Below are positions 2,876 to 62,343 of a DNA stretch of 64,000 bases, in pieces. Location: contig JAQUNI010000002.1 of NCBI GenBank assembly GCA_028717685.1, forward strand, positions 71,903 to 135,902, in the 5' to 3' direction. The translations under genes were made by a program, and so were the position numbers. The notes under the pieces were generated by a model, which was not told where the DNA came from, ran no database searches, and saw only the letters and a list, made by a program, of their open reading frames with translations. This DNA comes from Patescibacteria group bacterium. GTDB lineage: Bacteria > Patescibacteriota > JAQUNI01. Position 1 is the first letter of the stretch; each line of letters begins with the position of its first letter.

Positions 2876-5397
2876 TGAATGAAACTAATTTTTCCATCAT
2901 CTATCTTTTATGTGGGATGCTTTTTGTTCTATTGCTTATTTTGATTGCTTATTTTTTGATATTGAGCCAGCGTAAGAAATCCAAAGTGCCTAAGGCTTTC
3001 CAAACAACTTTGTTTTCAATTCGGGTGCCCAAAGAAATAGGCAAGGGGGAGAAAGAGGAAAAACAGGAAGAGAAGGAATTGATCGCGGTGGCGGAACAAG
3101 TGTTCGCCGGCTTCGCGCAACTCAATCGCATGAAAAAAGCCAAGCTTTGGGAGGAAAAAGATTTTGTTTCCTTGGAAATTGTGGCGCATCATAATGAAAC
3201 AAGTTTTTACGTTTGCTGTCCGAATAATCTGGTGGGGCTCGTGGAAAAACAAATCCAGGCGGCTTATCCCAGAGCCGAACTGGAAGAGATGAAGGAATAC
3301 AATTTTTATACTCCCGAGAGTGTGGTGCTCGCGACGAATATGGTTTTGGCGCGCGAAAACGTTTTTCCAATCAAGACTTACAAATACTTGGAAAATGATC
3401 CCCTTTCGGCTCTTGCTAATGCTTTAAGTAAGATGGGAGACCAAGAAGGAGGGGGTATAGAATTGATGATTCGTCCCGCTCCCAAAGGCTGGCAGACCAA
3501 GGGTCTTTCCGCGGCGCGCAAGATTCAGCAGGGCGTGAAAACCGCGGAGGCGGTGGGCGCGAAGGGCGTGGCAGGGAAGCTCGCACGCTTTGCCGGCGAG
3601 GTGGTGACGACAGCGGTTCAAGGAGCCGAGAAGAAGAAAAGAGCGCCGGAAGTGGAAGGGGAAAAACAGATTGAAGCGCCGCCTTCCTTAACCCCCCTGC
3701 AGCAGGAAACGGTAAAGCTTTTGGAAGAGAAAGCGAACAAGGTCGCTTTTGAAACCAATATTCGCTTGGCGGCCGCGAGTCCCACGCGCGAGCAAGCCGA
3801 GATTAAATTGTCCAATTTAATTAACGCTTTCCAGCAGTTTACTTACCCCGAATATAATAGTTTCAAGCCAGATAAGAATAAAAAATGGAGCGCCAAAAAA
3901 ACGATTACTAATTTTAACTTTCGTTTTTTTGATGAGGAAAAAGCGAGCATTTTAAATACCGAGGAGCTGGCGAGCATTTTTCATTTGCCTACGGCTTACA
4001 CCGAAACGCCAGAAGTGAAATGGCTTACCGCCAAGAAGGGCGAGGCGCCCGCCAATCTGCCCCAAGAAGGGATTGTGATTGGCAAGAATGTTTTTCGGGG
4101 CGTGGAGAGATTGGTGCGGATTCAAAGAGAAGATCGGCGCCGCCATTTGTATATTATTGGTCAGACCGGAACGGGCAAAACCACCTTGCTTAAAAATATG
4201 GTGGCGCAGGATTTGCAAAGCGGCGAGGGTGTTTGCGTGGTGGATCCCCATGGCGAACTCATTGAAGAATTATTAGGTCTTATGCCGAGAAACAGAGCAG
4301 AAGATGTCGTGGTTTTTGACCCGGGAGATATTGACCGCCCTTTAGGGCTTAATATGTTGGAGTACAACACGCCCGAACAGAAGGACTTTGTAGTTTCCGA
4401 GATGATTGCTATTTTCCATAAGCTTTTTCCGCCGGAGATTGTGGGTCCGATGTTTGAGCACAATATGCGCAATGTGATGCTGACCTTGATGGCGGATCCG
4501 GACAATCCAGGGACGATTACCGAGATTCCGCGGATGTTCACTGATCCGGAATATCAAAAATACAAGATCGCGAAAGTGACGGATACGGTGGTGCGCGATT
4601 TTTGGGAGAAGGAAATGGCAAAGACCACGGATTTTCATAAATCCGAAATGTTGGGCTATCTAATTTCCAAGATTGGGCAGTTTGTGGAGAATACGATGAT
4701 GCGCAATATTATCGGTCAGCAGCGCTCCGCCTTCAATCTCCGCGAGATTATGGACTCCGGCAAAATTTTACTCGTTAATCTGTCTAAAGGCAAAACCGGC
4801 GAGATTAATTCTTCGTTGCTCGGTCTCATCATTGTTTCTAAAATTCAGATGGCGGCAATGGGGCGGGTGGATATCCCCGAGGAAGAGCGGCGCGATTTTT
4901 ATCTTTACATTGATGAGTTCCAAAATTTCACCACGGATAGTATTATGACGATTTTGTCCGAAGCCCGCAAATACCGCCTGAATTTAACCCTCGCCAATCA
5001 ATATATCGCCCAGCTTCCGGAACAGATTCGCGACGCGGTTTTTGGCAATGTCGGCAGCCTTGCTTCTTTCCGGATCGGACCCAATGACGCCGAGTTTGTG
5101 GAAAAACAAACCGAGCCGGTTTTTTCTGCCCACGATTTAATCAATCTTGGCCAATTCCAAACCTATTTGAAACTTACTATAAATAATACGCCTTCCAAAG
5201 CCTTTAGTATGCAGACCTTGCCGCCCGAGCAAAAGCCTGACCGCGATTTGGCGCAAAGAATAAAAAATTTATCGCGCTTGAAATACGGCAAGGAGCGCGC
5301 GGAAGTGGAAGCGAAGACTATGGAGCAGCTTCAGCCGGAAATGGAACCAGGAAGTGGGGACCAGGAATCAGGAGGAATTATTAATTCTTCTGTTTAA
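2876..5397 (+). CDS. VirD4/TraG/TrwB-like coupling ATPase (T4SS DNA-transfer, AAA_10/DUF87-like) with N-terminal TM segment
   Basis: N-terminal hydrophobic helix, Walker A IIGQTGTGKTT, DPHGE, Walker B LYIDEFQNF. An upstream in-frame start at 2836 is possible. Confidence 0.6.
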
Positions 5398-7839: not shown

Positions 7840-7965
7840 TTTCATTTGTCATTGCGAGGAGGGCATTTAAGCCCGACGAAGCAATCTCCTAAATCTGTAT
7901 CAATGTAGTTCTATGAGATTGCTTCGTCGTCCGCTTGAGGGCGGACTCCTCGCAATGACAGAATT
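7840..7965. repeat. compound palindromic MITE-like element, copy 1
   Basis: GTCATTGCGAGGAG...GACGAAGCAATCTC // GAGATTGCTTCGTCG...CTCCTCGCAATGAC nested inverted repeats. A second copy lies at 27512-27658. Confidence 0.75.
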
Positions 7966-9008: not shown

Positions 9009-9256
9009 AAAATCATATAACGTGTAACTTATAACTTATAACTCAAGGAAGAGAGGCGGGGTTCAATGAAACTCCGCTTTTTTTAATGCTCTTTAGTTTT
9101 AAGATCTTTGCCTTTCTATGTTTGGGCGTCATTACGATATGACGCTTCTTTATTTAATGAAATGAATTTTACAATAAAAACCCCGCGCCAAGATTGACTT
9201 AGAATTTTATAATGAAAAAAGTCGCTAAGTGTTTAGCGACTGTTAGCTTTCTTGTT

Positions 9257-12291: not shown

Positions 12292-12380
12292 GAGGACAAC
12301 ATATATCCAGGCGTCTCTGTTACCTTAGGCTCTTGATTCAAGGCAATTGATATCAAGAGCTATTTTTTTTAATGTCTTTA

Positions 12381-12514
12381 CCCCGTTAGAAACATGCCCC
12401 GCCCCGTTAGAAAATTTTTTCTAACGGGGCACGCAGCTAGGCTAGCGGTTAATATAGAAATATAGATAACTCGTGCGGTTGGGCTTAATGCCCCGCACGA
12501 GTTTCTAACGGGGT
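12381..12514. repeat. REP-like hairpin repeat cluster (CCCCGTTAGAAA / TTCTAACGGGG) with outward sigma70-like promoter
   Basis: Perfect 13-bp inverted repeat CCCCGTTAGAAAA/TTTTCTAACGGGG, second TTCTAACGGGG at ~12503. Followed by TTGACA-16-TAAAAT. Confidence 0.6.
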
Positions 12515-12758
12515 TGACAACCATTGGGGGTTTGGTAAAATAGAATTAAGTATATGACTAATGTGATTTCTAAGTTTAATAATAGTTCAAAAAACCTAGC
12601 CTTATTGTTGGTGGGCGTTTTGTTGCTGCCACTCGCGGGCTAGGTTTTTTCAATGTTTCAAATATCAGAAAATAAAAATCTAGCCCGGGAAAGGCTAGTT
12701 TTTTGTTTTTGTTTTTTTGGTTCTTTACTTAATCAAATTTTGTGATAGGAGGTATAAT

Positions 12759-13145: not shown

Positions 13146-13629
13146 TAAAAGCAGTGTCCACTATTACCCCTTCAAAGTAGCAATCATCAAAGCTCACAAA
13201 GAGCGATCCTCTTTGCGGTGCCTAGAGTGTACCCGAGCAGTTATCCTGCACAATTGGGATAGCAGGTGATTCGCCATGTTAAAGAACTTCGTTCTCTAAC
13301 GGGGTTTGCTGCTTTGGGCAGGTTCGCTAAAAAAGAAGTTTTTTCTTTTTATGAACCTGCCTTTTTATTTTTTAGTTGTGTTCCACACTTTATGTTTTAT
13401 CCACAGTTTTATTTGACAAATATTTTTCTTTTAATTAGACTATTAAAGGTATGAATAACCTCAAGTTTCAAAAATATATCCGCACCATTAAATCCGATTT
13501 TCTGGACCGGCTAGTTTTGTGATGTGAAAACACAAATTAATCGTGAAACTAGCTGGTCTTGAAAAACAAGACCAGTTTTATTTTGTTCATTTTCCGGAAT
13601 AATATAACAAATAGAAAGGAGGAAATGGG

Positions 13630-22781: not shown

Positions 22782-22972
22782 TTTGAGATTATTTTGCTTG
22801 ATTAAATTTTCGTAGGACGACTTAACTTCTCACTTGAGGTCTTTTATTTTGGAGAGACGCAAGATTTTACGTCTCTACTACTTTAGAAATACCACTTTGG
22901 AGAAAACCCTACTTATGTTTGTATTATAACATTATGTGTATAAAAAGGCAATAGTTTTTTAGAAACCTGCCT

Positions 22973-23684: not shown

Positions 23685-24272
23685 TTAAATATATAAATTT
23701 TCTATGTTATTTCTATCCTTTTTCCAGTTCGGGGGATTGTCAATAATATATTCTTGAATTTGTTGCAGGGCGTGTTCATTACGAATAATGTGGTCATAGA
23801 AACGGGATTGTCATTGAAAATGTAGATGATTTTGATATTTGTTAATTTCACGTGTGCAAATTGATTTGTATGAACGAATAATAACCGATAGCGATTGTGG
23901 CTTGGGTGATATCATAGACATTTGGTAATTTTTTGGACGTTGTTTATTCCTATGGTAGAGACGTTGCATTGCAACGTCTCTACGCGGATTATTATAATAA
24001 TTGTGGTTGATTATAATAATCCCATGCATATGGTTCGGCATCACAATATATTCGTCCAAAATCGCAAACGGAAAATGTTTGGGAATTTCTCGCCAATATT
24101 TATCCACAACGATTCCTATTCTGGATAATTGTATTACATTATTAATGACCTGGCCAAAGCATTCTTTCCGCTCTTTTGTGCAAACGGTCACGAAATACGC
24201 TCCTTCCATTGAATAATCATATTCTTGCAGTCTGGCCGATTCTGCGCGGAATTTATCTTGAAATAATACCAT
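23685..24272 (-). pseudogene. REP-associated tyrosine transposase (RAYT, Y1 HuH) interrupted by an in-frame TGA at 23811-23813
   Basis: N-terminal ORF (23811-24272) has YFVTVCTKERKECFG and MPNHMHGIII (HuH). After the TGA the same frame continues QSRFYDHIIRNEHALQQIQEYIIDNPPNW (catalytic-Tyr motif) to a TAA at 23685-23687. The TGA sits where RAYTs have a conserved Trp (WQRxFYDH). Confidence 0.65.
23955..23983. repeat. 29-bp perfect palindrome GTAGAGACGTTGCATTGCAACGTCTCTAC (inside RAYT coding sequence)
   Basis: Read directly; encodes RRDVAMQRLY in the RAYT frame. A near-identical copy is at 25007-25031. Confidence 0.8.
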
Positions 24273-24313
24273 TTATTTGATTAGAATTTGCGTTTCATTT
24301 TCCTGACCGTTTA

Positions 24314-24373
24314 CCTCGTTAGAGAAAACCACAGTCAGTGGAAACCGTTGGAGAACGAAGTTCTCTAATGGGG
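24314..24373. repeat. REP-like hairpin (CCTCGTTAGAGAA ... GTTCTCTAATGGGG) immediately 5' of the RAYT gene
   Basis: Inverted repeat arms with a ~35-nt loop. Same family as 12381-12514, 48417-48493 and 39404-39470. Confidence 0.6.
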
Positions 24374-24374
24374 T

Positions 24375-24992
24375 TTATATTTTCCGCACAAAATAGCAAA
24401 GCCAATTTGTATCTTCTTCTTGATGAATATGGTTTCTTAAAATTTTAAATCCATTCTGTTCTAGAATTTTTTGGAATTCTACTTTAGTGTAAAAAGCGAA
24501 ATACCGTTCAATCCCGCCGTGTTTTTTTTCTTTGATGATGCCCTCGTCAAGATGTCTTTTTTCTTTGAGGGCGATAAATCCTATGCCTTGGGATTTGATA
24601 ATTTTTCTGATGGCGCGGAGGACCTTGGCGACGCGGCGTTTGGGGATATGCAGGAGGGAAGCAGCAGCCCAAAAGCCGTCAAAATGATTCTGGGGAAATT
24701 TCAATTTGTAGAAATTCATCAAAATAAATTTGCCGCTTTTTACGAACTTGCGCGCTTCGTGAAGCAATCCAGAAGAGGCATCAATGCCAATATAATCAAA
24801 TTTGTTCTTTATAAACAGCAATGCATCTTTGCCTGACCCGCATCCAATGTCTATAACCCTTTTCCCCGAAATCAATTTTTGAAAAATTTTAAATTCCCTG
24901 TGCCAAAAAAGCGGGTTATTATAACCGCGGGCGGCATATTCTTTGGCGATTTTATTGTATGTTTTAATTGTTCTTTGACTAGGGTTCAACAT
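24375..24992 (-). CDS. class I SAM-dependent methyltransferase
   Basis: VIDIGCGSGKD (motif I), GIDAS. Start taken at MLNPSQ; the track N-terminal extension reads through the palindrome. Confidence 0.7.
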   Translation of the reverse strand: MLNPSQRTIKTYNKIAKEYAARGYNNPLFWHREFKIFQKLISGKRVIDIGCGSGKDALLFIKNKFDYIGIDASSGLLHEARKFVKSGKFILMNFYKLKFPQNHFDGFWAAASLLHIPKRRVAKVLRAIRKIIKSQGIGFIALKEKRHLDEGIIKEKKHGGIERYFAFYTKVEFQKILEQNGFKILRNHIHQEEDTNWLCYFVRKI

Positions 24993-25006
24993 ATATATTG
25001 CCGCAT

Positions 25007-25031
25007 AGAGACGTTGCATTGCAATGTCTCT
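25007..25031. repeat. second copy of the AGAGACGTTGCATTGCAA(C/T)GTCTCT palindrome
   Basis: One mismatch relative to copy 1. Lies between the methyltransferase start and the CYTH gene stop. Confidence 0.75.
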
Positions 25032-25036
25032 GCCAA

Positions 25037-25603: not shown

Positions 25604-25724
25604 ATGGATTATTATAACAAAAATCATAAAAAAGTGCGATTTTGCAATATTGGCAATGCAGTATATAATAAGAACATCAGACTAGAATTTGTAATGGAAT
25701 AAACTTTCTCTAATGAGGTAAAAT

Positions 25725-27511: not shown

Positions 27512-27658
27512 GAATTACGAAATGCATTTTTGTCATTGCGAGGGAGGCATTTGATGCCGACCGAAGCAATCTCCTAAATCTATATAAATACAGCTCGATG
27601 AGATTGCTTCGTCGGGCTTAAAAAGCCCTCCTCGCAATGACGACGCATTTCGTAATTC
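27512..27658. repeat. compound palindromic MITE-like element, copy 2
   Basis: GAATTACGAAATGC...GTCATTGCGAGGGAGG...CCTCCTCGCAATGAC...GCATTTCGTAATTC. Same family as 7840-7965. Confidence 0.75.
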
Positions 27659-29284: not shown

Positions 29285-31135
29285 TTAAGGCGTCAGAGGC
29301 ACTAGATCGGGTATGCCGTCGCCATTTTGATCACCTTGAGGCGTCAGCGGCACAACATCGGGCAAACCGTCGCCATTCTGATCGTTGCTGGTTGCGGGAT
29401 TTTGATTTCCTTCCGGGGTCAAAGGCACGAGGTCGGGCAAGCCATCGCCGTCCTGGTCGTTGGAGGAGGAAGTGTTATCGCCCGGTTTCCACTCGGAAGT
29501 TAGCACAATGCGCAAGGGTTCTTGTTTATCGCAACTTAAACCCTTAAGATTGCCCTCCGCGTCATAAAGGTTTTTCAACTCCGCCGGCAGATTGTATTGT
29601 TGCGCCATTTCCCGCACTTTTTTGGTTGCTTCCTTGTAAGCGGCCATTCCTTCTTCTGAAGGCTCGAAGGAAATAACGGCTCCATTTTGACCATTATCTC
29701 GGATAAGTTTACCGCTGCCCACCATTTGGATTCCAGGCGCGATCGTTTCCGTGGATTCGGGTGTATAGGTCTCTGACCAGTGCCAGTTGCTATCAGGCGA
29801 AATGTGTAAAGCTTTCGCTGTTTGTTCTGGTCCAGCAAGGCTGGATTGATAATTGCCCGCTCGTGCTGCCCAAATTGGAAAGCTTTCACCCTCGCGAATC
29901 CCCGCTAAAGAAAAGGTGGTCAACATCAGATCCGTGGATTTTCCCTTAACATTATGCATTGGGATGTCAAGTAAGTAATAAGAATCAATCGTACGCGACT
30001 CTTTATGTATCAGGGCATCTAGGTCGGTATCAGTGGTGTAATACTGATAGACGCGCCAATCCGTGCGCCAGGCAGGTTCGCCAACGGCGGCATCGTCCGT
30101 ATGAAGTCCTTCCGAAAGAACCATTGTTTTTGACTGCGCGCTTTCCTGAAAAAATCCGCCGGCTAAGTTCATATTAAAAGTGCAGCCATAAGAGTCTGAT
30201 TGGCGGATGATATATTTTCCTGAAGTCTTTTCCTCTTCGCAATCGTTCGTGAACGCCTTTTCAGTCTTCAGCGCCAAGTCTGGGTAAGGAAAAAATTGCA
30301 TCATCTGCCAAGCCGTAACCAAATCCGTCAAAGCGTCCGGCGTTTCGTTCGGGCAATAATCTTGAATTACTTTATTGGTTAATTCTTCGGCAATTTGGGA
30401 AGCGCGCTCCCAGCTGGCATCGTTATATTGCTTGGCTTTGCCTGTGGCATCATCAACCGCGATTTTGCTCATCTCCGCCTCGAATTCTTGATACATACTT
30501 TGATTTTCAGGATCCTTAAAAGTGAATTCGAACCCATTGGGCGTTCCGCCGCCGACATAACTCGCGTGCGTTAATACGGTTTGATAGACGTTGTTCCCGA
30601 GATTTATCGTCGGCAGCCACTCCCATTCTTTTTTCACAGTATCCCAGTAACCCAAGGCAAAATCCTTTTTTGGCGCTTCATTTAAAGTGATTTTAAAAAT
30701 GAGTCCGCGCTTGAAATCTTTTTCACTAATTGAAATTTCAAATAAACCCCCGATCACCCCTTGGGGCCAGATGGATTCCGCGGCTTCCTTGATTGTGATT
30801 TTCGGTTTTTTTGTAAAAGCCGCTTGGGGAACAATAAGCTCCGCCTTGCCGCCCGCGGCGCTAGCCTGAAGAATATCGGGACGATCCGCCGCGCTTTGTT
30901 CACTAGCGCCCCGTTCCAAGAGGGCGGAAATCATAATCCCCGGATTAGGCAAGAAGAAAAGGAAGGAAGAGGCAACCAGCCAAAGCACAAGGAGCACTCC
31001 GGGTAAACAAAATAAAGCCACCAAGAGAATAATTAATTTTTTGTGGGATTTTTTGGGTGGAGCGGGGGAGGGGGTGTTTGCCACTGGCGGGGCAGGCGGA
31101 TTAGGCGGGACAGGGGGTAAGTTTTGTGTTTCCAT
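29285..31135 (-). CDS. membrane-anchored surface protein with Pro-rich N-terminus and C-terminal thrombospondin-type-3-like Ca-binding repeats
   Basis: PPVPPNPPAPP, a TM helix, and three NDQDGDGLPDLVPLTP-type repeats at the C-terminus. Confidence 0.5.
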   Translation of the reverse strand: METQNLPPVPPNPPAPPVANTPSPAPPKKSHKKLIILLVALFCLPGVLLVLWLVASSFLFFLPNPGIMISALLERGASEQSAADRPDILQASAAGGKAELIVPQAAFTKKPKITIKEAAESIWPQGVIGGLFEISISEKDFKRGLIFKITLNEAPKKDFALGYWDTVKKEWEWLPTINLGNNVYQTVLTHASYVGGGTPNGFEFTFKDPENQSMYQEFEAEMSKIAVDDATGKAKQYNDASWERASQIAEELTNKVIQDYCPNETPDALTDLVTAWQMMQFFPYPDLALKTEKAFTNDCEEEKTSGKYIIRQSDSYGCTFNMNLAGGFFQESAQSKTMVLSEGLHTDDAAVGEPAWRTDWRVYQYYTTDTDLDALIHKESRTIDSYYLLDIPMHNVKGKSTDLMLTTFSLAGIREGESFPIWAARAGNYQSSLAGPEQTAKALHISPDSNWHWSETYTPESTETIAPGIQMVGSGKLIRDNGQNGAVISFEPSEEGMAAYKEATKKVREMAQQYNLPAELKNLYDAEGNLKGLSCDKQEPLRIVLTSEWKPGDNTSSSNDQDGDGLPDLVPLTPEGNQNPATSNDQNGDGLPDVVPLTPQGDQNGDGIPDLVPLTP

Positions 31136-35547: not shown

Positions 35548-35622
35548 TAATTGTAATTTTCAATTTTTAATTTCTAATTTTCAATCAATTTTTAATAATT
35601 CAATTTTTAATTTCAAAAAGGG

Positions 35623-39305: not shown

Positions 39306-39403
39306 TTGATGTTTAAACAGAAAGAGGATAAATTTTGAGGTAATGGCGGGTTTTATAGAATTTTAAAATTCTTGAGTTTTTTGAATTGATTTTCGGATTG
39401 ACC

Positions 39404-39470
39404 TTGTTAGAAACACGCCCCGCAACTGGGCTAGTGGTTGGGTTTTATGTTCCGCATGAGTTTTGATGGG
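39404..39470. repeat. variant copy of the GTTAGAAACAYGCCCCGC repeat family
   Basis: GTTAGAAACACGCCCCGC ... GGGCTAGTGGTTGGG ... CCGCATGAGTTT aligns with 12381-12514. Confidence 0.5.
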
Positions 39471-39471
39471 A

Positions 39472-39499
39472 TTGACTTTTTGGTACTTATCGGTTAAAT
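39472..39499 (+). promoter_or_regulatory. sigma70-like promoter (TTGACT-16-TTAAAT) upstream of fusA
   Basis: Read directly; lies at the end of the repeat element, ~110 nt before the fusA GTG. Confidence 0.4.
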
Positions 39500-39610
39500 T
39501 ATCTTTTGGGTATTTTTGTTTTGCAAAAAATTTAAATTGCAACTTTTAACTTTTTCAGCCCAAGGCTGATCGGCCTCGGGCCGAAACTTTTCACTTTTAA
39601 CTTATCTTTC

Positions 39611-45084: not shown

Positions 45085-45813
45085 ATGAAATTACCAATTT
45101 ACAATTTAGATGGCAGTAAGTCCGGTAAGTTTGTCAATCTCGCGCCAGAAATTTTTGGCGTGGCAGTGAATCCAGTTTTAGTGAATCAGGCTGTGGTGGC
45201 TCAACGCGCGAAGAGTCGCCATCCTATTGCCCATACGAAGACGCGGTCCGAGCGCCGCGGCGGCGGAGCGAAACCCTGGAAACAGAAAGGAACGGGGCGG
45301 GCGAGAGCAGGTTCCCGCCGCAGTCCCTTATGGCGCAAGGGAGGAATAGTTTTTGGGCCGAGAAATGAAAGAAATTTTACAAAGAGGATCAATAAGAAAG
45401 CAAGACGCAAAGCTATTCTGATGGTTCTTTCCAATCGGGTGAAGACGGGCGATGTTGTTGTCGTTAAAGAGTTGAAGATTCCAGAAGTTCGGACGAAGCA
45501 AATGGCTATCTTCCTTGAAAAATTTCCTTTACAATCCAAGCCCTTGATTTTACTTTCTGAAAAAGACGAAAAAATTCGCAGGGCGAGCCGTAATTTATCC
45601 TCTCTCAAGGTTTTATCCGCGAACAGTTTAAATGTGGTTGACCTTTTGGATCGCAATTGTATTTTAATGCCCCTCGCAGCAGTAAAAATCATTGAGAAAA
45701 CCTACTCTTCAAATATTGCAAATTCCACCCCCCACCTTTTAAAAAAAGCGAGTGACGCTCCACTGGTTCGGCAGGCTTACCATCCTATGGTTCGGCAGGC
45801 ACTTCGGCCATGA
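45085..45813 (+). CDS. rplD: 50S ribosomal protein L4 (C-terminal ~35 aa read into a repeat element)
   Basis: KPWKQKGTGRARAGSRRSPLWRKGG; C-terminal tail ...LVRQAYHPMVRQALRP. Confidence 0.9.
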   Translation: MKLPIYNLDGSKSGKFVNLAPEIFGVAVNPVLVNQAVVAQRAKSRHPIAHTKTRSERRGGGAKPWKQKGTGRARAGSRRSPLWRKGGIVFGPRNERNFTKRINKKARRKAILMVLSNRVKTGDVVVVKELKIPEVRTKQMAIFLEKFPLQSKPLILLSEKDEKIRRASRNLSSLKVLSANSLNVVDLLDRNCILMPLAAVKIIEKTYSSNIANSTPHLLKKASDAPLVRQAYHPMVRQALRP

Positions 45814-45861
45814 GGGCTTCGACTGAGCTCAGCCGAATGTCCTTAGTGCCGAATAGCTCAC
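45786..45861. repeat. ~75-bp repeat, copy 1 (ATGGTTCGGCA..CACTTCGGCCATGAGGGCTTCGACTGAGCTCAGCCGAATGTCCTTAGTGCCGAATAGCTCAC)
   Basis: Near-identical copy at 49965-50040. Confidence 0.75.
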
Positions 45862-46370: not shown

Positions 46371-47198
46371 ATGAAATTTTATAAACCTACTACGCCGGGG
46401 AGAAGACAAATGACAGGGAGCGATTTTTCCGATCTAACGCGGGGCAGAAAACCGACAAAAAAATTGGCGGCGGGTTTAAAGCAAAAGGCAGGCAGGGATC
46501 GATTGGGTCATATTTCGATTCGGCACCGCGGCGGAGGTCATAAGAGGACATACCGCCTTATTGATTTTAGGCAGGACAAGTTTGATATACCGGGGAGAGT
46601 TGCTTCCATTGAATATGATCCCAACCGTACGGCATGGATTGCTTTGATTCACTATGCCGATGGAGAAAAACGTTATATTCTTGCCCCTCAAAGAATAAAG
46701 GCGGGGGATATGGTTTTAGCAAGCCAGAAAAAGATTGAAGCGCGGGTAGGCAACCGGATGCCTCTTGCTGAAATTCCTGACGCGAGTCCTGTTCACAATT
46801 TAGAGTTAAACCCAGGGCGGGGTGGTCAAATCGTGCGGGCGGCAGGCGGGAGCGCGATCTTAATGGGTAAGGAAGGAAAATACGCCCAGATTAAACTCCC
46901 CTCGGGAGAGATCCGCAATATTTTAAAAACTTGTTTAGCCAGCATGGGTAGTTTAAGCAATCCAGAACATGATAATATTAATATAGGCAAAGCAGGACGC
47001 ACGCGTTGGTTGGGGATCAGACCCACAGTAAGGGGGAAAGCGATGAATCCAGTAGATCATCCTCATGGCGGAGGGGAGGGTAACCAGCCGATTGGTTTAA
47101 AATATCCCAAGACTCCTTGGGGCAGACCAGCTTTGGGGGTGAAAACGCGGCGGAAGAAGAAATACTCGGACAGATTGATTGTGAAGAGGAGAAGATAG
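46371..47198 (+). CDS. rplB: 50S ribosomal protein L2
   Basis: [23 protein letters not shown] core, [10 protein letters not shown]. Confidence 0.95.
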
Positions 47199-47391
47199 TG
47201 TAAAATTTTAAATTCTAAATTTTAATTCAATTTTAAAATCCTAATTTTAAATTTTAAAACCAAGGGAAATAAGAAAGGGTTTTAAAATTAAAAAATTTAA
47301 AATTTGGATTTGATTGAAAATTTCAAATTAGAAATTTTCATAGATAATAGCCCTTGTAATTAAATTTTACCAAAATTCAAGTTCAAAAATT

Positions 47392-47815: not shown

Positions 47816-48415
47816 ATGGAAGCGAAAGCGAAACTTAGATATTTACATATTGCGCCGCGTAAGGTAAGATTGGTTATTAATTTAATTCGCGGCTTAGAAG
47901 TGGGCAGAGCCTTGGAACAACTTTCTGTAATAAAGCAAAGGGCGGCAAGGCCAGTGTTTAAACTGTTAAAGTCGGCTATTGCGAACGCGGAGCACAATTT
48001 TAACTTAGATAAGAATAATTTATATATCAAAGAAATTCGGGCAGATGAAGGACCAACTTTAAAGCGTTGGCAGCCGCGGGCCTTTGGCCGCGCTTTTCCT
48101 ATAATGAAGAGAGCGAGCCACATATCCATTATTTTAGAGGAAAGGGTTGTTGGTCGCAGAAAGACTAAGTCAGGAGGAGAAGCTCCCGAGCTTATTGCCA
48201 GCCCTAAGATGGCAGGAAAGAGCGCGTTGAAGGTTGGGAAGAGCAGAGTTGTGCCCACTCCGAAGATACCGCAGGGCAGCGAGACAACCCTGAAACCATG
48301 GGATCCTCGCCGAGAAGCCGGTCGCCGAAACAAGCAACATCAGGATAAGAAGAAACTAGCTCAAGGCAAAGCTTTGAGCGGTCTTAAACGTTTTTTCCAA
48401 CGTAAATCGGTGTAA
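47816..48415 (+). CDS. rplV: 50S ribosomal protein L22 (long basic C-terminal extension)
   Basis: MEAKAKLRYLHIAPRKVRLVINLIRG. The long antisense track ORF 47500-48333 is spurious. Confidence 0.9.
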   Translation: MEAKAKLRYLHIAPRKVRLVINLIRGLEVGRALEQLSVIKQRAARPVFKLLKSAIANAEHNFNLDKNNLYIKEIRADEGPTLKRWQPRAFGRAFPIMKRASHISIILEERVVGRRKTKSGGEAPELIASPKMAGKSALKVGKSRVVPTPKIPQGSETTLKPWDPRREAGRRNKQHQDKKKLAQGKALSGLKRFFQRKSV

Positions 48416-48416
48416 A

Positions 48417-48493
48417 CCCCTTTAGAGAACTTTGTTTTCTAACGGTTCTCTCGGCTTATATTCTGCCTGCCGTCAAGCAGGTCTCTAACGGGG
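48417..48493. repeat. REP-like hairpin (CCCCTTTAGAGAAC ... GTCTCTAACGGGG)
   Basis: Same arms as 24314-24373 and 12381-12514. Sits between rplV and rpsC. Confidence 0.6.
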
Positions 48494-48682
48494 TAAAATG
48501 GAGCCCTTCAGGTTGTTCAGGTCGTTCAGACTCTTAAAGAGCTCAAAGAGCTCTGAGAATGACCCCTTTTCAAATCCTTCGCGAGAGGCTGATTTGCGAA
48601 GAGCTCCAAATATAGGACATGAGTCATGAAGCCTGAAACGGGTAAAGTTATAAGTTTAATGTTTTAAGTTTTAAGCAAGCAT

Positions 48683-49773: not shown

Positions 49774-49977
49774 ATGGAAATGAAAGAATTAAAGCAAAAG
49801 AGCATATCAGAATTACAACATGAGCTTGCTTTTCAGAGAGACGAAATGCGAGAGTTTAATTTCAAGTTGGTCCAGGGCGAGGTGAAAAATGTGCGCGCTT
49901 TGCGCAAGGTGAAAAAGGAGATTGCGCGAATTTTAACCCTTTTGAATATTCGCAGAAAAATTAATGGTTCGGCATAG
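49774..49977 (+). CDS. rpmC: 50S ribosomal protein L29
   Basis: ELKQKSISELQHELAFQRDEMREFNFKL. Confidence 0.9.
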   Translation: MEMKELKQKSISELQHELAFQRDEMREFNFKLVQGEVKNVRALRKVKKEIARILTLLNIRRKINGSA

Positions 49978-50040
49978 CACTTCGGCCATGAGGGCTTTGA
50001 CTGAGCTCAGCCAAATGTCCTTAGTGCCGAATGGCTCACC
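49965..50040. repeat. ~75-bp repeat, copy 2
   Basis: ~95% identical to 45786-45861. Overlaps the rpmC stop. Confidence 0.75.
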
Positions 50041-53544: not shown

Positions 53545-54147
53545 ATGGCAAAAAGTTTCAACAAAAGAACATCTCAAAGAATCCCAAAAGAGTATGAACA
53601 AAAACTCGTTGATTTAGCGCGGGTTACCAGGGTTGTAGCCGGGGGAAGACGTTTTAGATTTCGCGCCACGGTAGTGATTGGCAATAAGAAGGGGACAGTA
53701 GGAATGGGCGTAGCTAAAGGGGCGGATGTCTCAACAGCCGTGGAGAAAGCGGTTAAGCGGGCGCAAAAGAATTTAATCAATATTCCATTTTCCGGGAGCA
53801 CCATTCCTCATGAGATAGAGGTGAAATATAAGGGAGCGCGGGTTCTGTTAAAACCGGCTCGGGAAGGAACAGGGGTTATTGCTGGCGGTTCTATCCGGGC
53901 TGTAGTAGAGTTGGCAGGAATAAGGGATATCTTAAGCAAGATGTTAGGCAGTCAGAATAAAATCAGCAACGTACGGGCAACACTGCAAGCTTTACAGAAT
54001 TTGGAGACAGCGGACGATATTTTAAAAAGAAGAGGGAAGGAAAGAAGTCCTCAAAATGGAGCCCTTCTCCAGCCCCTCGCGAAGGGCTGGATTCGCGAAG
54101 CCAGCCTCTCCAATCCGAAGAAAGACTCCAAAAAGGCAAAAGAATAA
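53545..54147 (+). CDS. rpsE: 30S ribosomal protein S5 (C-terminal extension)
   Basis: VTRVVAGGRRFRFRATVVIGNKKG. Confidence 0.9.
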   Translation: MAKSFNKRTSQRIPKEYEQKLVDLARVTRVVAGGRRFRFRATVVIGNKKGTVGMGVAKGADVSTAVEKAVKRAQKNLINIPFSGSTIPHEIEVKYKGARVLLKPAREGTGVIAGGSIRAVVELAGIRDILSKMLGSQNKISNVRATLQALQNLETADDILKRRGKERSPQNGALLQPLAKGWIREASLSNPKKDSKKAKE

Positions 54148-55205: not shown

Positions 55206-55403
55206 CCTATAACAAAATTATTCTAATTAACCTAATTATTCTAATTATTCTAAATAAATCTCCAATGACCAATGTCTAAAAATTAATTTTAGTCATTGGA
55301 ATTTAGTCATTGGTCATTTCTTAGGTTAATTAGGTCAATTAGAATAATTAGAATAATTTTTACTCTGGGTCAATTAGAGCAGTCAGATATTTTTCTTTAT
55401 TTT

Positions 55404-58766: not shown

Positions 58767-59486
58767 ATGCCTGAAATCCATCTTTCAGTGATTATTCCCG
58801 CTTATAATGAAGAGAAAAGGATTGCCGCGACCTTGAGAGATATTTATGATTATTTAAAAAAACAGAGCTTTGAAAGTGAAATTTTGCTTTTAGATGATGG
58901 TTCTCGCGATAAGACGGTAGAGGTGGCCCGATCCTTAGATATTCCGAATCTTAAAGTTATTGACAATTCAGAGAATCACGGCAAGGGTTATGTTGTGCGG
59001 CAGGGAATGTTGGAGGCTCGAGGCTCTTATCGTTTGTTTACGGATGCGGATAATTCCACCAAAATTTCCGAATTGGAAAAATTTTGGCCTTATTTTCAAA
59101 ATGGTTTTGATGTCGTGATTGGTTCTATTGAAATTAAAGGCAGCATAGTTCATGAAAGGGCAGCTTGGTATCGCCGGACCTTGGGGAAACTCGCCAAAAT
59201 TTTAATCCGCATGGTTCTGATTTGGGAGATTCACGACACCCAAAGAGGCTTTAAGTGTTTTACAGCCGAGAGCGCTGTGAAGATTTTTCCGAAACAAACA
59301 ATTGAGCGTTGGGGTTTTGATATGGAAATTCTGCAGATTGCCAAAAAGCAGGGGTTTAAAATTAAGGAATTGCCTGTATCTTGGGAGAATCCCGCGGGGA
59401 GCAAGGTAACCTTAGGGTCTTATCTTTCCTCATTTCGAGAGTTAATGAGGATTAAATGGAACAGCTTAAGAGGGAAGTACAAATAA
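58767..59486 (+). CDS. family 2 glycosyltransferase (Dpm1/polyprenol-phosphate sugar transferase-like)
   Basis: VIIPAYNEEKRI, LLDDGSRDKT, DAD. Confidence 0.75.
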   Translation: MPEIHLSVIIPAYNEEKRIAATLRDIYDYLKKQSFESEILLLDDGSRDKTVEVARSLDIPNLKVIDNSENHGKGYVVRQGMLEARGSYRLFTDADNSTKISELEKFWPYFQNGFDVVIGSIEIKGSIVHERAAWYRRTLGKLAKILIRMVLIWEIHDTQRGFKCFTAESAVKIFPKQTIERWGFDMEILQIAKKQGFKIKELPVSWENPAGSKVTLGSYLSSFRELMRIKWNSLRGKYK

Positions 59487-59595
59487 TAATTTCTAATTTT
59501 TAATTTCTAATTTTTATTAAATTTCTAATGACCAAATTTTTAAACCGTTTAGAAATTGATTCATTGAAAATTTAATAAAAATTAAAAATTGATAA

Positions 59596-60624
59596 TTGAA
59601 AATTTCTTTAATGACAGATAAAAATAGAAATCAAATCTTAAAATCAGAACTACGTCAAGATCTAGTGACGGGGGAATGGGTGGTGATTTCGCCTAAAAGG
59701 AAAAAGCGGCCAAGTACACCTTTTATTGAAGCCCATTACCGATATAAAGAACAAGCGGAATGTATATTTTGTGATCCAGTGAAATCAAATCAAGAAAAGG
59801 ATGTTCTGATTTACTATGATAAGAATAAAAGATGGGTTGTTCGGGTTTTTCCCAATAAATATCCTGCTTTTCAGAGGAGAAACAGCTTAAATAAAAAGCT
59901 GCACGGTCCTTACCTTACGGAAGATGCCATTGGTTTTCATGAAGTTGTGGTGACGCGCGACCATAAGCGCTCTTTGGCTTCTCTTAACGTCAGCGAAGTA
60001 GCGGGGGTTTTACGAGCCTATCAGGAGAGATACATTAAATTAATGAACAAGAAATTCGTAGATTATATTCTGGTTTTTTATAATCATGGACGCACTGCCG
60101 GCGCTTCGGTGGCCCATCCCCATTCTCAACTGATTGCTATGCCGTTTGTTTCTATGGATATTCAGAAAGAAATACGGGGAGCAGAGGATTATTTTTTGAG
60201 GAATCGGGAATGCGTTTTTTGCCGGATGGTGGATCAAGAATTAACAGAGAAAAAGAGAATAGTTTTTCAAAATGAGTATTTTGTGGTTTTTTGCCCTTTT
60301 GCCTCCCGAATGGGGTATGAGATGTGGCTCGTGCCCAAAGAACACCATCCTTATTTTGAAAGGTTGGAGCAGGGAGGAAGGGATAAGGCAGCCGAGGCTT
60401 TAAAAGAAGCTCTCTCGCGGCTGGATAAGCTACTAGAAGAACCTGACTACAATTTTTATCTCCACACTTCCCCTTGCGATGGTCACATCCATTCTTATTA
60501 TCATTGGCATATTGAGATCTTGCCTAAATATTCCACTTGGGCAGGGTTTGAACTAGGTACAGGTATAGAGATTAATACCGTATTACCAGAAAATGCAGCA
60601 GAAGAGTTAAGATTGATAGTTTAA
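59596..60624 (+). CDS. galT: galactose-1-phosphate uridylyltransferase-like (GalT/HIT superfamily)
   Basis: CIFCDP zinc site, HPHSQLIAMP (HxHxQ). GC-rich hairpin terminator follows (60640-60700). Confidence 0.7.
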   Translation: MKISLMTDKNRNQILKSELRQDLVTGEWVVISPKRKKRPSTPFIEAHYRYKEQAECIFCDPVKSNQEKDVLIYYDKNKRWVVRVFPNKYPAFQRRNSLNKKLHGPYLTEDAIGFHEVVVTRDHKRSLASLNVSEVAGVLRAYQERYIKLMNKKFVDYILVFYNHGRTAGASVAHPHSQLIAMPFVSMDIQKEIRGAEDYFLRNRECVFCRMVDQELTEKKRIVFQNEYFVVFCPFASRMGYEMWLVPKEHHPYFERLEQGGRDKAAEALKEALSRLDKLLEEPDYNFYLHTSPCDGHIHSYYHWHIEILPKYSTWAGFELGTGIEINTVLPENAAEELRLIV

Positions 60625-60768
60625 AGTTCAAAGTTAGAAGTGCCCGCCCGCCTCGCACTCCCGCGAAGCTTGTGAGCGGGCGCGGCAAAGTTGTAGTTAA
60701 GAGTTAAAAGTTAAAAAATTTTTAATCTTGAACTTAACTTTAAACTTTGAATTTTGAATTTTTAACTA

Positions 60769-61266
60769 ATGTTTAATTATTCCTCTTGGTTTTCCAATTT
60801 TCCTCCTGAGTTGGCGACATTTTTAATTGCCGCATTGCCTATTTCGGAATTGCGCGGCGCGTTGCCTTTGGGTTATACTGTTTATCATTTATCTCTCTGG
60901 TCAGCTTTTTTGTGGTCGCTTTTCGGCAATGTAGCAAGCGCTGTAATTTTTTTGGTTATTTTGGAACCCGTTTCTTCATTCTTGAGCAATCATTTCCGTT
61001 TTTTTCAAAGATTTTTCCGGTGGCTTTTTGAACGCACCCGCAAGAAACACTCCCAAAAATTTGAAAAATGGGGGGCACTTGCTCTTATTACGTTTGTCGC
61101 AATTCCCTTGCCTTTGACCGGCGGTTGGAGCGGGGCAATAGCCGCCTTTGTGTTTAGGATTCCTTTTAAAAAGGCCGCTCTCTCTATATCAATGGGAATT
61201 TTTCTGGCTGGGGTTATTGTGGCGCTTGTAACATTGGGCGGAGTAAGAGGCTGGCAGGCTCTCTAA
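60769..61266 (+). CDS. small membrane protein (COG2426-like)
   Basis: 4 TM; PISELRGALPLG. Confidence 0.5.
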   Translation: MFNYSSWFSNFPPELATFLIAALPISELRGALPLGYTVYHLSLWSAFLWSLFGNVASAVIFLVILEPVSSFLSNHFRFFQRFFRWLFERTRKKHSQKFEKWGALALITFVAIPLPLTGGWSGAIAAFVFRIPFKKAALSISMGIFLAGVIVALVTLGGVRGWQAL

Positions 61267-62073: not shown

Positions 62074-62343
62074 TGCAGAATGTAAAGATTAAAATGTAAA
62101 ATAACAATATGAAGTTCTAAGAATTCATGGAATACCATGTAGTGTATACCGTTATTGCGCCTATGGCTTTCTGGTGTGTGGGTAAAAAATTCTAAACTCA
62201 AAATCTCAATTTCCAAATAAATTACAATTTTCAAAATCTAAAATTCTAAACACCACTCTATCTCTACATTTTGAATTTTTAAAAATTGGAATTTGGAATT
62301 TATTTAGGATTTGGAATTTTGAATTTGAGATTTACTTAAAATT

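Follow-up and report, generated by a model that had tools for sequence, protein, structure and literature searches.

A dispersed family of small hairpin elements flanked by 4-bp duplications in a Patescibacteria genome, with features of a miniature transposon

Hairpin elements of the window

The DNA analyzed here, referred to as the window, is a stretch of 64,000 nucleotides from a Patescibacteria group bacterium (assembly GCA_028717685.1, contig JAQUNI010000002.1) that carries, among other genes, a ribosomal-protein operon, fusA and a gene resembling those of repetitive extragenic palindrome (REP)-associated tyrosine transposases (RAYTs). Dispersed through the window is a family of short hairpins with the termini CCCCGTTAGARA...TYTCTAACGGGG, which the original prediction had located at five loci and proposed as cognate REPs, or bacterial interspersed mosaic elements (BIMEs), of the RAYT. 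The family itself is real. Its 13-nt arm, CCCCGTTAGAGAA, is matched 11 times in the window with up to two mismatches, against 1.41 matches expected, and none of 100 shuffles reaches 11. Inverted arm pairs no more than 170 nt apart occur at five loci, compared to 0.1 pairs per Markov-simulated window. Two single arms without a partner, each with two mismatches (25706-25718 and 29900-29912), are probably chance matches. In total, the window contains six elements at the five loci, one of them nested inside another; they are listed here with the 4 nt on either side.

12381-12513, no strand assigned: long-form element B, 133 nt, or 101 nt without the nested insert, with the ends CCCCGTTAGAAAC...GTTTCTAACGGGG; flanks TTTA (12377-12380) and TTGA (12514-12517), a 3/4 match
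12402-12429, no strand assigned: nested minimal hairpin CCCCGTTAGAAAA-TT-TTTTCTAACGGGG, 28 nt, inserted in element B at CCCG; flanks CCCG (12398-12401) and CACG (12430-12433)
13274-13304, no strand assigned: degenerate minimal hairpin CCATGTTAAAGAAC-TTC-GTTCTCTAACGGGG, 31 nt, downstream of an open reading frame (ORF) for a LeuA dimerisation domain; flanks TTCG and TTTG
24314-24373, plus strand: internal-deletion derivative of long form A, 60 nt, between the RAYT start and a methyltransferase stop codon (minus-strand TAA, 24375-24377, within the duplication); flanks TTTA (24310-24313) and TTTA (24374-24377)
39402-39471, no strand assigned: decayed copy of element B, 70 nt, a paralogue of the 12381 element (repeat family D16); flanks TTGA (39398-39401) and TTGA (39472-39475)
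48417-48493, minus strand: reversed copy of long form A, 77 nt, with the stop codon of rplV (GTG TAA A) as its insertion site; flanks TAAA (48413-48416) and TAAA (48494-48497)

The extents of the elements at 24314 and 48417 agree with those predicted, while the others were revised. What had been described as two stems at 12381-12514 is an element ending at 12513, whose inner stem is the nested hairpin; a variant placed at 39404-39470 extends from 39402 to 39471 as the decayed paralogue; and a supposed half-site at 13293-13312 belongs to a complete, degenerate 31-nt hairpin. The reverse orientation of the 48417 copy was read by eye, as a reverse complement against the copy at locus L029, with no formal alignment, and the orientation of minimal copies is undefined.

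To describe the family beyond the window, one genome per GTDB species was scanned with the exact pattern CCCCGTTAGARA-N2-32-TYTCTAACGGGG, yielding at least 120 loci with 125 hairpins in them. Since perfect 12-nt arms were demanded, these counts are lower bounds. The elements are built from two 12-14-bp terminal inverted repeats that enclose between 3 and about 90 nt, have no coding capacity and span 27-133 nt in total. By size, they divide into minimal forms (27-33 nt), forms measuring 40 or 53 nt, and long forms (98-114 nt) whose internal hairpins are conserved. Among the 125 hairpins listed, lengths peak at 29 nt (29 copies) and 53 nt (15), followed by 31, 40 and 33 nt. The canonical unit, CCCCGTTAGAGAAC-GAA-GTTCTCTAACGGGG, measures 31 nt and occurs with exactly the same sequence in Omnitrophota genomes (L029, L115); the GAGAAC-nnn-GTTCTC mini-palindrome pointed out earlier forms its apex.

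The interior of the 98-114-nt long forms is conserved in an alignment across Omnitrophota, Doudnabacteria and Planctomycetia, which places the window copy at 24314 with them as a shortened derivative. By eye, the 48417 copy appears to be another shortened derivative, in reverse. The first internal hairpin of the long forms is 93.5% paired over eight copies, with compensatory changes in two of its eight pairs, lending modest support, given the small covariation sample, to the view that this hairpin is maintained. Several long forms contain an additional 29-nt hairpin inserted at TTAG inside their own inner arm. When compared with shuffled sequences, the elements at 12381-12513, 24314-24373 and 48417-48493 fold much better (z between -3.6 and -9.4). 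The 13274 hairpin does so only modestly (z around -2 to -3), and folding of the decayed copy at 39402 does not exceed that of its shuffles.

Insertion with duplication of four base pairs

All five loci of the window show direct 4-nt flanks, perfect for three elements and matching at three of four positions for the remaining three. The same pattern is found throughout the scanned genomes, where 70 of the 125 hairpins listed have a perfect 4-nt direct repeat and 25 more a 3/4 match. Shuffling the flanks leads to an expectation of 12.5 perfect repeats, with a maximum of 23 over 1000 shuffles, and hardly any hairpins have flank repeats that measure 5-8 nt or sit at an offset. According to a hand tally of the perfect duplications, T occupies the first position in 84% and A the fourth in 77%. 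The target is TNNA in 69%, with TAAA/TTTA, TTGA and TCAA favored, and the tetranucleotide differs from copy to copy.

Comparison with syntenic contigs of three relatives revealed the corresponding empty sites. The window derives from a CPR (candidate phyla radiation) member of the Parcubacteria group, whose ribosomal protein L22 shares 88% identity with the L22 of 'Parcubacteria group bacterium LiPW_72'. At the rplV stop, relative L131 reads GGTG-TAAA-ATGGAGCCC, while the window reads GGTG-TAAA-(77-nt element)-TAAA-ATGGAGCCC; the unoccupied rplV-rpsC site is GGTGTAAAATGGAGCCC in L131 and GGTGTAAGATGGAGCCC in L127/L128. In relative L129, the fusA promoter GATTGACTTTT...TAGATT is conserved and the element upstream of it is absent. 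Over about 55 kb of DNA from the syntenic relatives there was no convincing copy, the sole match being one arm with two mismatches in L127. Contigs from Logan that represent the same strain match the window exactly, elements included, and reveal no strain polymorphism; this check returned no record for the RAYT ORF.

Nesting provides a further pair of filled and empty sites. A copy in a Candidatus Doudnabacteria metagenome-assembled genome (MAG), L084 3359-3459, is 101 nt long, 95% identical to the window element at 12381 and uninterrupted; it is flanked by TTGA on both sides and lies in DNA unrelated to the window. Deleting 12402-12429 together with 4 nt restores ...CATGCCCCGCAGCTAGG... in the window element, as found in this Doudnabacteria copy and in the paralogue at 39402-39471. 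The elements are therefore insertions that each duplicate exactly 4 bp of target, with TNNA preferred. Their targets include one another, intergenic signals such as stop codons or -35 boxes, and housekeeping genes, within which they sit in frame.

[quoted passage not shown] In our view, the CCCCGTTAGARA...TYTCTAACGGGG hairpins very probably belong to a MITE-like, non-autonomous family of DNA transposons.

Two of the window copies adjoin promoters on their right-hand side.

39472-39500, plus strand: native fusA promoter TTGACT-17-TAAATT, conserved in the element-free relative L129 and not part of the element
12514-12541, plus strand: promoter-like TTGACA-16-TAAAAT with 11 of 12 consensus matches, its TTGA being the right flank of element B

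The element at 39402-39471 is inserted in the TTGA of the fusA -35 box, which is left intact because the right-hand copy of the duplication is again TTGA. By analogy with fusA, the promoter at 12514-12541 is presumed to be native to its site. Copies at L044 and L084 likewise adjoin TTGAC(A). Insertions of this kind, as well as those at TAA-A stops (rplV and the minus-strand methyltransferase gene), would be tolerated, since the duplication regenerates the stop codon or the -35 box and renders the insertion harmless. Downstream of the 12514-12541 promoter, the region 12554-12700 contains a 29-codon ORF (MTNVISKFNNSSKNLALLLVGVLLLPLAG) and, ahead of the stand-alone LeuA-dimerisation-domain ORF, a bidirectional terminator-like hairpin at 12680-12698; this arrangement could be a leader/attenuator or encode a small membrane peptide.

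These contexts bear on the suggestion that the hairpins are host regulatory sites acting in cis, such as terminators, attenuators, mRNA stabilizers or protein-binding sites, that are under selection and immobile. The stable folding of three window copies, the two adjoining promoters and the T-runs that follow some copies elsewhere, which look like bidirectional terminators (L004), are in line with such a role. No T-run follows the hairpin in the two transcribed window contexts inspected by eye, making a terminator role unlikely for those two copies, and no Rfam family matches the elements. Furthermore, immobile sites are at odds with the empty sites of close relatives and their syntenic DNA lacking a convincing copy, with nesting and duplications, and with in-frame copies within uvrA and other genes. 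We regard this explanation as scarcely credible, and no host function of the element has been demonstrated. The original prediction had also allowed for mobile hairpins that carry terminators or promoters. Their mobility is borne out, while the promoter hexamers, although present, belong to the site in the case of fusA and presumably at 12514 as well.

Some copies lie inside genes. In-frame insertions within long ORFs account for 22 of the 125 hairpins (~18%), and 21 of these 22 have a length of 3n+2, which together with the 4-bp duplication keeps the reading frame; the test for genic copies itself partly selects for frame-preserving lengths, and among non-genic copies 49% have 3n+2 lengths against 33% expected. 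The encoded insert reads PVRN..ISNGV or PLE..(F/S)LTG. Judged by eye, uvrA is among the genes hit, as are miaB-, proS-, infB- and nadE-like genes. When the uvrA product of locus L051 is aligned with solved UvrA structures, an 18-residue gap falls precisely at the element-encoded peptide. Archaeal bulge-helix-bulge introns were considered as an alternative identity for the hairpins and rejected, since genic copies held in frame are translated rather than spliced.

The family is widespread. By record title, the 120 loci listed by the scan comprise 36 from Omnitrophota, 29 from CPR/Patescibacteria, 21 from Planctomycetota, 14 from Nitrospirota, 12 from Desulfobacterota and 'delta' lineages, and 8 others. 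Several of them are situated on contigs measuring 130 kb to 2.2 Mb and one on a complete genome, and many contain 2-5 elements per 8 kb. In addition, four IMG/VR contigs carry the element. Chance was rejected as the source of these viral matches, as L003 (with a terminase) and L005 (with a Mu-like transposase and a MuB-like ATPase) are true phage contigs that each hold more than one copy. At least five bacterial phyla, as well as phage contigs, thus share these termini, and two different CPR lineages have a 101-nt copy in common at 95% identity.

Two loci carry archaeal labels. L040, labelled Aenigmatarchaeota, contains a CheB/CheY/CheD/CheR/MCP operon, and L048, labelled Methanosarcinales, a protein with a TonB C-terminal domain. 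Archaeal hosts were rejected on the basis of these genes, and both contigs are probably bacterial and mis-binned into archaeal MAGs, for which reason the family is not claimed for archaea.

Searches for earlier accounts of the family returned little. A BLAST search of the long forms against annotated phages and plasmids gave no match. Rfam at the gathering score reported tRNA-Pro alone for the window, and a permissive search of both long forms (E up to 10) gave nothing credible. The strings CCCCGTTAGA, TCTAACGGGG, CCCGTTAG and CTAACGGG retrieved primers and chance matches only from the literature. Topic searches that combined Omnitrophota or CPR with MITEs or REPs turned up no account of the family, and an Omnitrophota survey is silent on repeats and transposases. 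We therefore found no description in Rfam or the searchable literature, which does not prove that the family is undescribed.

The neighboring RAYT, its own palindromes and other repeats

The RAYT-like gene and three palindromes in its surroundings are separate from the hairpin family.

23685-24272, minus strand: Y1/RAYT-like transposase pseudogene with an HUH motif (HMH); not part of the hairpin family
23955-23983, no strand assigned: palindrome with a GTAG tag, GTAGAGACGTTGCA-A-TGCAACGTCTCTAC, which lies within the RAYT ORF and encodes RDVAMQRLY
25005-25033, no strand assigned: second GTAG-type palindrome, reading ATAGAGACGTTGCA-T-TGCAATGTCTCTGC and situated ~730 nt upstream of the RAYT, where it separates the CYTH gene from the methyltransferase gene
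22852-22878, minus strand: GTAG-type palindrome with a variant apex, GTAGAGACGTAAAATCTTGCGTCTCTC on the minus strand, ~810 nt downstream of the RAYT; the variant also occurs in L133

As annotated, the RAYT ORF (23811-24272, minus strand) stops at an in-frame TGA at 23811-23813. Beyond this codon the frame runs for 41 more codons (QSRFYDHIIRNE...) and includes the helix of the catalytic tyrosine, WQSRFYDHIIR. The Pfam model Y1_Tnp scores 19.8 bits on the ORF as annotated and 28.4 bits when read through (cutoff 23), and NF047646, likewise a weak match to the annotated ORF, gives 62 bits when read through, under its cutoff of 80. A metagenome scan yielded 18 loci with RAYT homologues, 72 kb in total. 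All eight homologues that were translated have Trp at the position of the TGA (xWQxRFYDH), indicating that, barring readthrough of the TGA, the window gene has become a pseudogene through a TGG>TGA change. As other window genes, such as that of the 707-aa EF-G, are normal with translation table 11, a nonsense pseudogene is likelier than UGA recoding. By homology, the window RAYT is a member of the family and is probably inactive.

The palindromes around it offer a better candidate for a cognate repeat than the hairpin family, given their GTAG tag and their location around and inside a RAYT gene both here and in a homologue. The latter, at the L133/L134 locus from another metagenome, is 65% identical to the window RAYT and has the same palindromes, the variant among them, clustered upstream of and inside the gene (L133 positions 814-842, ~903-930, 1143-1193 and 1552-1599). 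The published definition of REPs fits this family (PMC3733652). The GTAGAGACG...CGTCTCTAC GTAG-tagged palindromes are likely the true REPs of this RAYT clade and have no match in a scan of viral contigs.

What remains for the hairpins is the proposal that they are REPs or REPINs mobilized by the adjacent RAYT through cleavage and rejoining of a single-strand hairpin by its Y1/HUH activity. They are indeed short dispersed palindromes that are at times clustered or nested like BIMEs, one copy lies 42 nt upstream of the RAYT-like ORF, and the minimal forms are hairpin-sized and suited to recognition as a folded single strand. The 4-bp duplication of variable sequence, together with a clean empty site, speaks against this origin, as the chemistry of IS200/IS605 elements and RAYTs makes no target duplication. 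PMC3733652 mentions none. The original prediction had suggested looking for GTAG-like tetranucleotides; in none of the 125 copies listed is there an unpaired GTAG/CGTC tag, and the CCCC...GGGG ends are symmetric and fully paired. Linkage fails in both directions: a tblastn search with the RAYT against 836 kb of DNA from the hairpin-bearing loci (at least 120) returned zero matches, and the 72 kb around the 18 RAYT homologues contain a single hairpin, 2 kb from the gene. In the window, moreover, the hairpin is present on one side of the gene only, the gene is a nonsense pseudogene, and distinct GTAG-tagged palindromes track its clade. RAYT-driven mobilization is therefore largely refuted and very unlikely to account for the hairpins, whose position beside the RAYT is coincidental.

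Several other repeats were observed in the window and the loci. A second hairpin or MITE-like family with the termini GGAGCCCTTC...GAAGGGCTCC occurs at ~48498-48612 and 54057-54100, in L084 (172-230) and in the rplV-rpsC spacer of L127/L128. It fills most of the remaining rplV-rpsC spacer of the window, which is about 190 nt longer than in L131, and lengthens the 3' end of ORF 53545-54147. Over 44 nt, the family matches a Doudnabacteria MAG at 97.7% identity. Another dispersed family is represented by two 63-nt copies, 95% identical (GCACTTCGGCCATGAGGGCTTCGACTGAGCTCAGCC...), at 45799-45861 and 49977-50039 in intergenic spacers of the ribosomal-protein operon. Large imperfect palindromes (GTCATTGCGAGGGAGGCATTTGATGCCGACCGAAGCAATCTCC...) at 7858-7929 and 27532-27641 are 81% alike, one of them with 54-nt arms 2 nt apart. 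Operons for ribosomal proteins and translation are usually tightly packed. Between such genes of the window sit long AT-rich spacers of AATTTCTAATTTTTAA-like units with many long imperfect inverted repeats (35549-35610, 47190-47340, 55214-55360, 59480-59604, 60602-60791 and 62187-62333). A 44-nt direct repeat (AAAATCGTGTAACTTATAACTTGTAACTTATAACC...) occurs twice, at 2408-2451 and 9009-9052, the former directly upstream of ORF 2452-2820, the gene of a four-helix-bundle protein resembling 23S-rRNA-intervening-sequence proteins and bAvd. Finally, L022 contains a 736-bp segment (4419-5154) that AATT flanks at either end and whose boundaries are inverted repeats of 20 nt (GGGGACACATCCC...). These repeats begin with GGGGACAC, in agreement with the GGGGWSAS motif reported for the terminal inverted repeats that flank RAYT-like 'TIRYT' genes (PMC3733652).

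Candidate mechanism and comparison with known systems

The duplication of 4 bp points to a transposase that makes staggered cuts rather than to HUH/Y1 chemistry. A MITE-like element of this kind would be moved in trans by an enzyme of the DDE/DDD type that cuts its target with a 4-bp stagger. An IS1380/piggyBac-like enzyme is the best candidate, since the elements combine CCC termini with a T..A duplication of 4 bp, the hallmark of piggyBac; we offer this as a lead only. Phages may carry the element between hosts. Integron attC sites were also considered, as the GTTAGA/TCTAAC of the arms resemble the core sites GTTRRRY/RYYYAAC, and were rejected from sequence alone because they stand in inverted order with respect to the loop and a duplication is present.

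Several observations weigh against a MITE-like transposon with a classical transposase. TTAA itself makes up only two of the 70 perfect duplications, and 30 of the 125 copies, some of them composite or decayed, have no recognizable duplication. The demand for perfect arms skews the sample towards intact or young copies, and the taxonomic spread follows MAG record titles. About 840 kb of DNA from the loci contain neither arm pairs separated by over 200 nt nor convincing solo arms that would mark an autonomous copy. All-against-all clustering of 1587 ORFs from the hairpin loci revealed no recurrent transposase; the families found are all generic (PAS/GGDEF, ABC, glycosyltransferase, TPR, pilin, radical SAM and RpoC). 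A Pfam search of window ORFs between about 1 and 31 kb likewise detected no transposase. Furthermore, an element of 27-33 bp is too short for a synapse of two duplex ends, so that a folded single strand may be involved.

The search for a parent went further and extended to arm pairs 300-7000 nt apart with matching flanks and to generic pairs of terminal inverted repeats with 4-bp duplications 600-3500 nt apart, neither of which gave anything relevant; no element longer than about 160 nt is present in the 840 kb of loci. MAG contigs tend to break at multi-copy insertion sequences (ISs), and the missing parent is for this reason weak evidence.

The small size and the missing parent are the starting point of an unconventional route, in which a folded or snap-back hairpin is integrated at a staggered nick by a host or other non-classical enzyme and gap repair produces the 4-bp repeat. 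The commonest form, at 29 nt, is about as long as one duplex 'end' plus a loop, and termini that are identical across phyla argue for a conserved protein that recognizes them. Compensatory changes preserve the internal hairpins, and where only one side of a pair has changed, the result is mostly a G-U or G-T pair on one strand. Against this stands the combination of terminal inverted repeats, a duplication of fixed length and a T..A preference, which is the signature of classical DDE transposons. No enzyme acting in this manner was identified in the present analysis, and we know of none that integrates folded hairpins. We consider this route unlikely, and the MITE-like transposon moved by a staggered-cut transposase accounts better for the termini and duplications.

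A more far-reaching picture combines several of these elements. The hairpins may form an undescribed superfamily of ultra-small transposons with a minimal unit of ~29 nt, circulating among CPR and Omnitrophota, as ultra-small or episymbiotic organisms, their Planctomycetota/Nitrospirota/Desulfobacterota neighbors and phages, moved as a folded hairpin by a piggyBac/IS1380-like or an entirely new enzyme, and routinely translated as an insert of 11-19 residues in UvrA, IF-2 and ProRS. Taken jointly, these propositions are speculative, and we doubt that all of them will hold together.

The observations have a number of practical implications. A hairpin family beside a RAYT can be mistaken for a REP system, as here, and the 4-bp duplication serves as a simple discriminator. 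Few transposable units that duplicate their target seem to be smaller than these elements, which would offer a test case for the minimal substrate of a transposase. Identical termini across phyla and on phage contigs are a possible marker of horizontal DNA flow in CPR-Omnitrophota communities of groundwater and sediment. For annotation, the elements lead to spurious ORF extensions as well as real in-frame peptides, which bears on family alignments and the structure prediction of MAG proteins.

Among known systems, REPs and REPINs with their RAYTs share with the hairpins the short dispersed palindromes, which are sometimes clustered, and the placement of one copy beside a RAYT-like gene. They are set apart by the duplications of the hairpin family and by its lack of both a GTAG/CGTC tag and RAYT linkage.

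The terminus of piggyBac reads CCCTAGAAAG and that of ISEcp1 CCTAGATT. The terminal inverted repeats of piggyBac elements have a conserved CCC start and a 4-bp TTAA duplication with the variants TAAA, CTAA and TCAA, and IS1380 is the prokaryotic sister family (PMC10813416, PMC5718144). The hairpins resemble both in their CCC(C) termini followed by ..TAGA.. and in a 4-bp duplication with T first and A last. They differ in a target relaxed to TNNA, among which TTAA is rare, and in that no DDD/DDE transposase was found in the loci or window ORFs examined. To our knowledge, there are no IS1380-derived MITEs of such a size or with such a spread across phyla.

The palindromic elements of Rickettsia are about 100-150 bp long and occur in Rickettsia only. 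Like the hairpins, they are palindromic selfish DNA found in frame in seemingly functional housekeeping genes, to which they add a short peptide. There is no sequence relationship between the two, we know of no 4-bp duplication for the Rickettsia elements, and the hairpin copies are mostly intergenic.

The closest parallels are with bacterial MITEs such as Correia/NEMIS of Neisseria, RUP, ERIC and Nezha, which also have terminal inverted repeats, duplications of fixed length, no coding capacity and many dispersed copies, insert beside and inside genes, give transcripts that fold as hairpins, and nest. Bacterial MITEs are usually quoted at 70-300 bp (PMC3733652). Compared with them, the window family has no identified parent IS, is smaller, with a modal length of 29 nt, duplicates 4 bp of TNNA rather than TA, and is spread over at least five phyla instead of a single genus.

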